Origin: Methanobacteriota archaeon
GTDB lineage: Archaea; Thermoplasmatota; E2; DHVEG-1
Reading direction: 5' to 3'
DNA length: 64,000 nt
Assembly: GCA_963769885.1 (NCBI GenBank)
Contig: CAVYNH010000006.1
Coordinates: 384,001 to 448,000 of the forward strand
Shown here: in pieces, positions 17,462-38,820 of the stretch
How positions within the stretch are numbered: the first letter of the stretch is position 1
How the letters are laid out: each line of letters starts with the position of its first letter
Position numbers and translations under genes: made by a program
Notes under the pieces: model-generated
Seen by the model: only the letters and a program-made list of their open reading frames with translations
Told to the model about the DNA's origin: nothing
Databases searched by the model: none

Positions 17462-17616
17462 AAGCTTCGCCTCCTTTCTCTAGGAAGATGAAACGAAATC
17501 ATATTTTTAATCGTATCTAAATAAATGGGATAAAAAAAAGAGCCGATATCGAGCCATCGCAGGATTCATAACAGGATTGATTTAAGTATCGCAAGAGACC
17601 CTCCAGGAGAGGTAAG

Positions 17617-17689
17617 TGGGCCAGGCCGGAATTGAACCGGCGGCCTCCGCGTTGTAAGCGCGACGTCATAACCACTAGACCACTGGCCC
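17617..17689 (-). tRNA. tRNA-Val(TAC), copy 1, fully paired stems
   Basis: GGGCCAGTGGTCTAGTGGTTATGACGTCGCGCTTACAACGCGGAGGCCGCCGGTTCAATTCCGGCCTGGCCCA; no CCA. Confidence 0.92.
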
Positions 17690-19746: not shown

Positions 19747-19915
19747 CTGGAAACACCTTACGCAGATGGACAAAACCATCCCCGGATAAGAATGTTACGA
19801 GGCCTTTTTTCCAGGAGAGGATTCAGGGGGTGTGAAGCGACACGGAAGAACAATCGTGGAGGGCGACCCTGTGATTCCTTGAGACGAAGTGTTGTCGCGT
19901 ATTGCGAAAAGAAGA

Positions 19916-19988
19916 TGGGCCGGACCGGAATTGAACCGGCGGCCTCCGCGTTGTAAGCGCGACGTCATAACCACTAGGCCACTGGCCC
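19916..19988 (-). tRNA. tRNA-Val(TAC), copy 2, three substitutions versus copy 1 (possibly chimeric or degenerate)
   Basis: GGGCCAGTGGCCTAG...CCGGTCCGGCCCA; A6-C67 acceptor mismatch, D-stem mismatch, G-U in T-stem. Confidence 0.75.
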
Positions 19989-20055
19989 AGGTTTCAGAGA
20001 ATGATAAACCTGATAGAAACTATGAAATATCCATCGGGATTTAATCTTACTTACG

Positions 20056-36869: not shown

Positions 36870-36940
36870 CAGCCCCGGGCGGATTTGAACCGCCGACGTT
36901 GGCTCCAAAGGCCAAAATGTTGCCACTACACCACGGGGCT
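36870..36940 (-). tRNA. tRNA-Gln(TTG)
   Basis: AGCCCCGTGGTGTAGTGGCAACATTTTGGCCTTTGGAGCCAACGTCGGCGGTTCAAATCCGCCCGGGGCT-G; A1-U72, G73, no CCA. Confidence 0.92.
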
Positions 36941-36971
36941 CCACGCAGCAAGGGAAAACAGCCACAGGATT

Positions 36972-38654
36972 TTAAGGTTTAGCACCCGCCGCGCCCTGGA
37001 TCTTCCCCCAGGTATCCCGCAGCTCCACCGACCGATTCAACACCAAACGCGTCGCAGTCGACCCCGGATCCACGCAGAAATACCCCAGCCGCTCGAACTG
37101 GAACCGGTCCAATGGCTTGCAGTGACGGACCGTCGGCTCGACCTTACAGCCATGCAGGACCTCAAGAGACCGCGGGTTCAGGAACTCCTTGAAATCCGCC
37201 CCCTTCTGATCCAGCGGGTCGCGTACCGTGAACAGCTTGTTGTAGAGCCGGACCTCCGCCTCCACCGCATGCCGGGCAGAGACCCAATGGATCGTGGACT
37301 TCACCTTGCGGCCGTCCGGGGCGTACCCACCCTTGGTCTGCGGGTCGTACGTACAGCGCAACTCCACGACCCGACCATCCTTCTTCACGACATCCTTGCA
37401 GGTGATGAAGTACGCGTACCGCAATCTGACCTCGCGGCCGGGCGCGAGCCGATAGAACTTCGGCGGCGGCTGCTCCATGAAATCCTCCTGCTCGATGAAC
37501 AGGGTCTTGGAGAACGGGATCCGTCGGGACCCCATGGACGGGTCCTCGGGGTTGTTGACCGCCTCGACCTCCTCGGTCGTCTCAGGATAGTTCTCGATCG
37601 TCACCTTCAACGGCCGCAGCACACCCATGTACCGCGGTGCCGCCCTGTTGAGGTCATCGCGGATGCAGTGCTCCAGGAACTCGTAGTCGACGATGCTGTT
37701 GAACTTCGCGACCCCGATGCGCTTGGAGAACAACCGAATCCCCGAGGGCGAGTACCCGCGCCGGCGCATCCCGGAGATCGTCGGCAGCCTCGGGTCGTCC
37801 CACCCGTTGACGTACTTCCCCTCGACGAGCTGCAGCAGCAGCCGCTTGCTCATCACCGTAAAGGTGAGGTTCAGCCGTGCGAACTCGATCTGCTGCGGAT
37901 GATACACCCCGAGCGCGTCCAGGAACCAATCGTACAGCGGCCGATGGTTCTCAAACTCCAGCGTACAGATGGAATGCGTGATCCGCTCAAGGGAATCCTC
38001 CAGCCCATGCGCCCAGTCGTACATCGGGTAGATACACCATTTATCCCCCGTGTTGTGGTGCGTCGCATGCAGGATGCGGTACATCACCGGGTCCCGCAAG
38101 TTCAGGTTCGGATGGTTCATGTCGATCTTCGCACGCAGGACCTTGGAGCCGTCCGGGAACTCCCCCGCCTTCATGCGGCGGAACAAGGAGAGGTTTTCCT
38201 CGATGGAGCGGTCGCGGAAGGGACCATTGATCCCGGGCTTGGTGAGCGTGCCGCGCAGGTCAGCGATCTGGTCTGCGGTCAAGTCGTCGACATAGGCCTT
38301 CCCTTTCTTGATGAGGTCCTCGGCGTACGCGTACATCTGGTCAAAGTAATTCGAGGCGTAGAACAGCCGGTCCTGCCAGTCGAACCCCAGCCATTTCACA
38401 TCGGTGATGATGGACTGGACGTACTCCTCCTCCTCTTTCGCGGGGTTCGTGTCATCGAACCGCAGGTTGCACTTCCCGTGGTACTCCTCGGCGATCCCGA
38501 AGTTCAGGCAGATGGACTTCGCATGGCCGATGTGCAGATAGCCGTTCGGTTCTGGGGGAAACCTGGTGTGTACGCGGCCCTGGTACTTCCCTGACTGAAG
38601 GTCCGCGTCGATGATTTCCCGGATAAAATCCCTGCTCGCTTGCTGTTCGCCCAT
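36972..38654 (-). CDS. glnS: Glutaminyl-tRNA synthetase (bacterial-type)
   Basis: [58 protein letters not shown], beta-barrel anticodon domains ([25 protein letters not shown]). Confidence 0.96.
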
Positions 38655-38695
38655 CTGACACCGACTCCCACATCAGACTCACTAGGAGTAGACAG

Positions 38696-38767
38696 CAGCC
38701 CCGAGCGGATTCGAACCGCTGACAAGAGATCCAGAGTCTCCTATGTTAACCGCTACACCACGGGGCT
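38696..38767 (-). tRNA. tRNA-Gln(CTG)
   Basis: AGCCCCGTGGTGTAGCGGTTAACATAGGAGACTCTGGATCTCTTGTCAGCGGTTCGAATCCGCTCGGGGCT-G; A1-U72, G73, no CCA. Confidence 0.93.
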
Positions 38768-38792: not shown

Positions 38793-38820
38793 GATAAAAA
38801 AACTCACTATATAACCTTTC
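38793..38820 (-). promoter_or_regulatory. BRE/TATA promoter of the tRNA-Gln(CTG)-glnS unit
   Basis: Minus strand GAAAGGTTATATAG followed by TTTTTTATC upstream of the tRNA. Confidence 0.5.

Follow-up and report, generated by a model that had tools for sequence, protein, structure and literature searches.

A 64,000-nucleotide stretch of the genome of an uncultured archaeon from the Thermoplasmatota (assembly GCA_963769885.1, contig CAVYNH010000006.1, positions 384,001 to 448,000), referred to below as the window, carries two glutamine tRNA (tRNA-Gln) genes that flank glnS, the gene for a bacterial-type glutaminyl-tRNA synthetase (GlnRS). The two are probably working archaeal-type tRNA-Gln belonging to a unit that would replace the indirect route, composed of a glutamyl-tRNA synthetase of the non-discriminating kind (ND-GluRS) and the amidotransferase GatDE, by direct charging with a GlnRS of bacterial origin; a guanosine at the discriminator position (G73) would be helpful in this charging without being obligatory. 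Three derived changes set the window tRNAs apart from the ancestral tRNA-Gln of the phylum: A73 became G73; the CAA tail disappeared from the 9-nt D-loop AGYGGUCAA, leaving 8 or 7 nt; and U22 became A22, which closes a U13-U22 mismatch. By comparison of sequences, the short D-loop and G73 represent derived states that go together with GlnRS, because A73 and the 9-nt CAA loop are near-universal where GlnRS is absent.

According to reviews published up to 2022, GlnRS is missing from all known archaea (PMC9499178, PMC5388404, PMC3439900), and the barrier has been attributed to archaeal tRNA-Gln, with its A1-U72 and A73, not fitting the GlnRS of bacteria or eukaryotes (PMC9499178, citing Tumbula et al. 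2000). One preprint mentions Asgard archaeal GlnRS genes in passing, and a literature search found no paper on archaeal GlnRS or its tRNA side. Among 401 sampled Thermoplasmatota genomes, GlnRS was found above cut-off in 74, distributed over 13 families, and archaeal GlnRS is far commoner than the literature suggests.

The tRNA-Gln pair and its glnS gene

Four tRNA genes were called in the window by ARAGORN, including two tRNA-Gln genes on the minus strand, which are the only tRNA-Gln genes of the genome. The 71-nt tRNA-Gln(UUG) lies at 36870..36940 and the 72-nt tRNA-Gln(CUG) at 38696..38767, as placed by ARAGORN and the Rfam family RF00005; the ARAGORN boundaries for the latter are 38695-38767. 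Both match the RF00005 cloverleaf at full length and above threshold (63.2 and 61.1 bits; gathering score, 29), with zero non-canonical pairs flagged. Read on the minus strand, each gene starts with AGCCCCG and ends with CGGGGCU followed by G, and the discriminator G73 is located at 36870 in the UUG gene and at 38696 in the CUG gene. Both genes have A1-U72, G2-C71, C3-G70, G10, the D-stem GUGU/ACAU, and variable loops of 4 nt. The D-loop of tRNA-Gln(UUG) is AGUGGCA (7 nt) and that of tRNA-Gln(CUG) is AGCGGUUA (8 nt), while the anticodon loops, CUUUGGA and CUCUGGA, respectively, place G37 and A38 in both. CCA is not encoded in either gene, the bases after G73 being UCU and CUG, and no tRNA of this genome shows systematic CCA encoding. 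Every element of the description given in a first-pass annotation of this DNA (the terminal sequences with the following G, the compact D-loops, GA at positions 37-38, and the missing CCA) was found to be present. G37-A38 also occurs in the A73 tRNA-Gln of relatives, and this feature and the absent CCA are, as judged from the sequences, ancestral and ordinary.

Like archaeal tRNA-Gln that serve the GatDE route, the window tRNAs possess A1-U72, but both carry G73 in place of A73, and their 7- and 8-nt D-loops without a CAA tail differ from the phylum-typical 9-nt AGYGGYCAA. The E. coli glutamine identity set comprises G73, U1-A72, G2-C71, G3-C70, G10, the anticodon (U35, G36), A37, and U38 (PMC1865053, PMC9976931). 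From this set, the window tRNAs have G73 as well as G2-C71 and G10, the latter two being found in native A73 tRNAs too. They lack G3-C70, A37, and U38, having C3-G70, G37, and A38, and their first pair is weak like U1-A72 of E. coli but reversed.

The gene between them, glnS (36972..38654, minus strand), encodes a 560-aa protein that scores 722.8 bits against TIGR00440 (cut-off, 425.8) and 851 bits against PRK14703. It contains the catalytic domain and both anticodon-binding domains of bacterial-type GlnRS (PF00749, PF03950, PF20974), its HIGH and VMSKR motifs are visible in alignments, and it matches GlnRS of known structure from E. coli and P. aeruginosa at ~700 bits. The three genes follow one another on one strand in the order tRNA-Gln(CUG)-glnS-tRNA-Gln(UUG), glnS starting 41 nt beyond the CUG tRNA and its stop codon being separated from the UUG tRNA by a 31-nt spacer. 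Some 40 nt upstream of tRNA-Gln(CUG), reading of the sequence revealed a motif resembling a B recognition element (BRE) and TATA box, GAAAGGUUAUAUAG (38807..38820, minus strand), which is the probable promoter of the three-gene unit; nine cassettes of f1, the family of the window genome, have a RAAAG-TTATATA-type motif equally far upstream of their CUG tRNA. No TATA-like element was seen in the 31-nt spacer before the UUG tRNA of this genome. Because of the motif upstream of the CUG tRNA, the short same-strand spacers, and this lack of a TATA-like element before the UUG tRNA, a single tRNA-mRNA-tRNA transcript is likely. Matches to sigma-70 promoters and terminators inside the tRNA genes were disregarded, as the model is inapplicable to an archaeon.

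The genome is 2.09 Mb in size and 92% complete, and the contig that holds the window measures 785 kb. Metagenome-assembled genomes of Thermoplasmatota are its nearest named relatives. An archaeal-type GluRS is encoded 7 kb past the window end. No match to GatE was found in the genome at this level of completeness, and GatD gave just a 37-bit asparaginase-like match. The two proteins that define the GatDE route were thus not found encoded in this genome, and a like absence was seen in 13 related glnS-bearing genomes.

Distribution of G73 and the short D-loop

Among 41 close relatives, above-cut-off glnS was confined to family f1, and gatE was found in nearly all of the glnS-lacking genomes, making the distributions of the two genes nearly complementary. 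The close-relative genomes yielded 64 tRNA-Gln genes. Next to glnS, all are 71-72 nt long and have G73, a D-loop of 7-8 nt, and a purine (A or G) at position 22. Within f1, the combination of G73 and a 7-8-nt D-loop is found in 28/28 glnS-linked genes from 17 genomes, and G73 stays invariant while GlnRS identity ranges from 67 to 88%. The tRNA-Gln genes of GlnRS-less close relatives (f1 to f8) are 73 nt long with the D-loop AGYGGYCAA and have A73 in 29/29 cases; every native tRNA-Gln of f1 likewise has A73 and the 9-nt loop. Tabulation of position 73 and D-loop length with and without glnS, which the first-pass annotation had proposed, thus revealed that G73 is not equally common in glnS-less relatives. 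Its view of G73 as an adaptation to GlnRS was borne out within f1 (28/28 genes, G73 being rare without glnS) but not as a general requirement, since f24 and f40 keep A73.

One relative assembled as a single contig (G003) was left out of the counts. It has a G73, short-D-loop tRNA-Gln(CUG) at locus L117, with a 100-N gap 1.1 kb from the tRNA, and genome-wide searches for GluRS, GlnRS, and GatE gave zero matches; this may be an indel-rich assembly. A separate observation concerns the first pair. In the GlnRS-type tRNA-Gln of seven f1 genomes (G002, G004, G007, G009, G016, G021, and G024), as well as in G220 and G061, A1 is replaced by G1, giving a G1-U72 wobble that fits the loss of the GatDE need for A1-U72, with a weak first pair retained.

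Across the phylum, 66 GlnRS-less genomes from ~30 families gave A73 in 108/113 tRNA-Gln genes, all but one of which are 73 nt long. When all GlnRS-less genomes are pooled, 137/142 tRNA-Gln have A73, nearly always with a 9-nt D-loop ending in CAA, and the other 5 have G73. Among the fetched genes, the CAA tail of the D-loop is present in 0/51 glnS-linked tRNA-Gln versus 51/57 from GlnRS-less genomes, and the corresponding figures for G73 are 36/51 and 4/57. At the family level, G73 occurs in 7/13 glnS-bearing versus 2/31 GlnRS-less families (Fisher p = 0.001), a value that serves as a rough guide because families are not fully independent. Families f13 and f43 have G73 on both isoacceptors, and f9 has it mostly on the glnS-linked CUG tRNA, with the native A73 UUG tRNA and GatE retained. 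Loss of the CAA tail is universal with glnS linkage; G73 is frequent and is not strictly required, in view of lineages (f24, f40) that run GlnRS with A73 tRNAs.

Origins of the synthetase and of the two tRNAs

All of the fetched archaeal GlnRS (33/33), that of the window included, fall into a single clade (SH-aLRT 100) embedded in bacterial sequences, and the archaeal families are intermingled within this clade. Such a topology points to one bacterial import, followed by spread inside the phylum.

The CUG tRNA most likely moves with glnS between archaeal lineages. A maximum-likelihood tree of CUG tRNAs (66 columns) was poorly resolved on single origin, and pairwise identities, computed outside the trait columns (D-loop tail and positions 22, 34, and 73 excluded), were used in its place. 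Between families, glnS-linked CUG tRNAs have a mean identity of 88% and native CUG tRNAs an identity of 78%, while the linked and native CUG tRNAs of f1 are 80% identical to each other. That linked tRNAs resemble those of other families more than the native gene of their own family, together with the intermingling of families in the GlnRS tree, suggests that this tRNA is cargo traveling with glnS.

By comparison, the UUG tRNA looks like a native gene that was remodelled in place. G73-type UUG genes of f1 are 83% identical to the native UUG genes of f1 versus 80% to the G73-type UUG genes of other families, and they often keep the tRNA-Glu(UUC) neighbor of GlnRS-less genomes, plus the native UUG anticodon stem. 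In G008, sequence comparison identified a decayed tRNA-Gln(UUG)-like sequence (L091:3817-3890) between glnS and the G73 tRNA-Gln(UUG). This copy has a 9-nt CAA D-loop, A73, broken anticodon and T stems, and a mutated T-loop, matches native A73 UUG at 58/73 positions, and appears to be a fossil left by the native gene that was replaced. Two f9 genomes, G148 with GatE present and G196 with GatE not found, have UUG tRNAs that are identical save for A73 versus G73. In f43, the UUG gene has the body of the CUG tRNA with C34 changed to U, and the copies in G127 (L193, L211) differ at position 34 alone; new isoacceptors were apparently made there through anticodon mutation of a GlnRS-adapted tRNA. 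The G73-bearing UUG genes of f1, f13, f40, and one f9 genome differ in their bodies. Because of the f1 UUG identities, the tRNA-Glu neighbor, the G008 fossil, the C34U change in f43, and the G148/G196 pair, the second isoacceptor is considered to have been converted to the GlnRS type repeatedly and locally. The earlier proposal that native tRNAs adapted to the synthetase rather than arriving with it therefore holds for the remodelled UUG gene and fails for the CUG tRNA, which most likely travels with glnS.

Two further sequences were observed in other families. At L201 in G123 (f9), the UUG isoacceptor shares the body of the glnS-linked CUG tRNA and apparently arose through an anticodon mutation as well. 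Just downstream of glnS in G043 (f13), at L183:4323-4395, there is a native-type A73 tRNA-Gln(CUG) of 73 nt with the aberrant anticodon loop UCCUGCA (C33, C37), which may be a dying native gene beside a G73 gene.

Genus g18 of f1 has both systems. At least G153 and G341 contain an intact glnS, GatE, and four tRNA-Gln genes, of which the G73 pair flanks glnS and the A73 pair lies elsewhere, with the A73 UUG gene in its ancestral site beside tRNA-Glu. G018 of the same genus has GatE and the same four tRNA-Gln genes, with a glnS that appears frameshifted near its start, and G213, in which GatE was not found, has the G73 pair only. The presence of both systems in g18 indicates that the remodelled tRNAs precede the loss of GatDE and that both sets can share a cell. 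A second, divergent GatE-like gene, scoring ~540 bits against ~650-700 for the main copy, was also seen (G015:C9:35088-36959, G022:C1:36778-38652, and G153:C1:202949-204820); it is found with or without the main GatE copy.

Pfam searches of ten neighboring genes gave nothing bearing on tRNAs (DUF1611, a pyridoxal phosphate (PLP) enzyme, PKD, an Mrp/NUBPL ATPase, and a Mur-ligase-like protein). The other tRNA genes of the window are two copies of tRNA-Val(UAC) on the minus strand (17616-17689 and 19914-19989), separated by 2.2 kb; the second gives a lower score (55 bits), with several non-canonical pairs flagged in its acceptor and D stems, and may be a diverging duplicate. Outside the window, at G000:C6:618985-619075, ARAGORN called a 91-nt tRNA with the four-base anticodon 'gtag' (Tyr or Leu), probably a mis-parsed intron-containing tRNA.

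Proposed change of identity and its meaning

For the changes whose anatomy, distribution, polarity, and linkage were observed above, the enzymes that read them may be proposed as follows. G73 would restore the discriminator that bacterial GlnRS uses on melting the weak 1-72 pair and folding the acceptor end into the active site. A1-U72, G2-C71, G10, U35, and G36 would already have matched the bacterial identity set, and the change from A73 to G73 alone would raise the match. GatDE recognizes A1-U72 together with the D-loop near positions 19-20 (PMC2330236). Because the native tRNA-Gln D-arm is common to tRNA-Glu and GatDE reads the D-loop, the D-arm changes would erase the shared arm at the very place of recognition (positions 19-20) and plausibly take the tRNA out of the GluRS/GatDE route. 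The tRNA-Glu(CUC) of the window genome has a native-type D-arm, GUGU-AGUGGCCAA-UCAU, and A73. Both the discriminator and the D-loop appear to have moved toward the bacterial form, since tRNA-Gln adjacent to bacterial glnS genes has G73 and the 7-nt loop AGCGGUA.

On the side of the enzyme, the archaeal GlnRS keeps Leu at the position of E. coli L136, the residue that opens the 1-72 pair. Asn (N236) replaces E. coli Asp235 in 30/33 archaeal GlnRS versus 12/71 bacterial relatives, and His (H181) replaces the Ser next to Pro181 in 31/33 versus 7/71. We take both positions to sit at the acceptor-stem contact in the E. coli complex, which makes them a lead only. In E. coli GlnRS, Asp235 reads the 3-70 pair, and the classical D235N mutant with relaxed specificity is altered at this residue. 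N236 and H181 are candidate enzyme-side adaptations to the C3-G70 acceptor stem of the archaeal tRNA.

The history would then have run as follows. GlnRS would have entered the Thermoplasmatota once, from bacteria, and, after acquiring a tRNA-Gln(CUG) of archaeal type, would have spread as a module of synthetase plus tRNA; in f1, the native UUG gene beside tRNA-Glu would have been remodelled to match, and GatDE and the A73 tRNAs would have been lost afterwards.

A number of observations count against G73 as an adaptation to GlnRS, and several are what would be expected if A73 and the 9-nt CAA loop were kept for GluRS/GatDE alone and, once GlnRS had taken over, drifted through neutral changes. 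A73 is found in 15/51 glnS-linked tRNA-Gln. It occurs on both tRNA-Gln of f24, where GatE and glnS are present, on the glnS-linked CUG tRNA of the GatE-less f40, in which the UUG tRNA has G73, and in f46, f49, f22, and one f4 genome. The state of position 73 flips several times over the GlnRS tree, as relaxed constraint would give, the D-loop tails are heterogeneous (UUA, CUA, GUA, GCA, CCA), and A73 occurs in some bacterial GlnRS substrates (Bacteroidales). Five genes from three GlnRS-less, GatE-bearing genomes (G113, G118, and G193, of f39 and f41) have G73, which means that G73 alone is no barrier to the indirect route. The complete association of G73 with glnS in f1 may reflect perhaps one or two evolutionary events only, C3-G70, G37, and A38 are still unlike the E. 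coli identity set, and the search pattern caught purines only at position 73, such that a pyrimidine there would be missed outside the fetched loci. Neutral drift is nonetheless considered rather unlikely. G73 is invariant in 28 genes from 17 f1 genomes despite the divergence of their GlnRS, a pyrimidine at position 73 was seen in none of the fetched loci, and UUG genes of differing descent gained G73 repeatedly. Furthermore, in one genome pair G73 is the sole difference and coincides with a missing gatE, and the changes lead toward the form of bacterial tRNA-Gln instead of scattering.

Two other explanations were weighed. The changes might serve mainly as insulation, stopping GluRS from glutamylating tRNA-Gln after the loss of GatDE rather than suiting GlnRS: Glu-tRNA-Gln is toxic once GatDE is lost (PMC2330236), the altered D-arm is exactly the portion common to tRNA-Glu, and D-loops, at least, are remodelled in every GatE-less glnS-bearing lineage. 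However, remodelled tRNAs already occur in GatE-bearing genomes (g18, f9, f13, f43), so the changes precede GatDE loss, and G73 occurs alongside the indirect route in f39 and f41; insulation as the sole cause is accordingly held to be improbable. Co-import of bacterial tRNA-Gln genes with glnS in the original transfer would account for G73 and a 7-nt D-loop as bacterial features, and tRNA-Gln(CUG) does adjoin glnS in several bacteria. Yet in those bacterial neighbors the first pair is U1-A72 and the acceptor, anticodon, and T stems are unrelated, whereas the window tRNAs match native Thermoplasmatota tRNA-Gln in A1-U72, the AGCCCCG/CGGGGCU acceptor stem, the 5' strand of the D-stem, G37, and the 4-nt variable loop. 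Sequence comparison contradicts a bacterial origin for the window tRNAs, and this reading was rejected, leaving co-import with hardly any credence, and the first-pass claim that the tRNAs are of archaeal rather than bacterial type was upheld. Retuning of archaeal tRNA-Gln for direct charging by GlnRS, with G73 as an aid to it, thus stays the favored explanation.

The window pair was compared with known systems. It resembles the GlnRS/tRNA-Gln of E. coli in enzyme family and, within the tRNA, in G2-C71, G10, U35, G36, G73, the weakness of the first pair, and the small size of the D-loop, but differs in A1-U72, C3-G70, G37-A38, and an archaeal tRNA body and, in the enzyme, Asn for Asp235. With the tRNA-Gln of the ND-GluRS/GatDE route, as modelled in Methanothermobacter, it shares A1-U72, overall sequence, the 4-nt variable loop, and G37, but has G73 for A73, no CAA tail, a position 22 paired with U13, and no GatD or GatE; GatE-bearing relatives of the window genome have near-identical acceptor stems. 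In Deinococcus radiodurans, tRNA-Gln(UUG) combines A1-U72 and G73 in a natural GlnRS substrate (PMC1865053), although this is a bacterial tRNA read by a GlnRS with a YqeY tail and with no recent switch from the GatDE route. The combination of A1-U72 and G73 is therefore not new; what is new is its origin through retuning of an archaeal tRNA. Helicobacter pylori GluRS2/tRNA-Gln and duplicated PylRS/tRNA-Pyl pairs provide examples of synthetase-tRNA co-change or separation achieved partly via G73 versus A73 (PMC9976931, PMC9499178). In contrast to these cases, the synthetase here was imported across domains, the tRNA is of resident type, and separation of the sets is a proposal.

The locus and its relatives offer a natural identity-switch experiment, in which tRNAs are altered at the positions thought to bar GlnRS from archaea. 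They turn a 25-year-old barrier hypothesis into a testable series, from the old route only, through both routes with two tRNA sets, to GlnRS only, and the tRNA changes can be read at every stage, including a pair differing solely at position 73. Of the barrier, the D-loop tail always had to change and G73 often; the 1-72 and 3-70 pairs and positions 37-38 did not. Beyond the archaea, the series provides a natural model for GlnRS displacing the amidotransferase route elsewhere in life, as well as candidate synthetase/tRNA pairs for genetic-code engineering. An orthogonal pair, as raised in the first-pass annotation, is plausible, since one genus keeps both tRNA sets. A stronger version, which we put forward tentatively and do not regard as the likelier outcome, is a mobile 'direct glutaminylation module' of bacterial-origin GlnRS and retuned archaeal tRNA-Gln, with the two tRNA sets mutually insulated in g18. 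If true, g18 would hold a natural orthogonal pair of routes to one amino acid and would be a living intermediate of a transition once made by eukaryotes and many bacteria.

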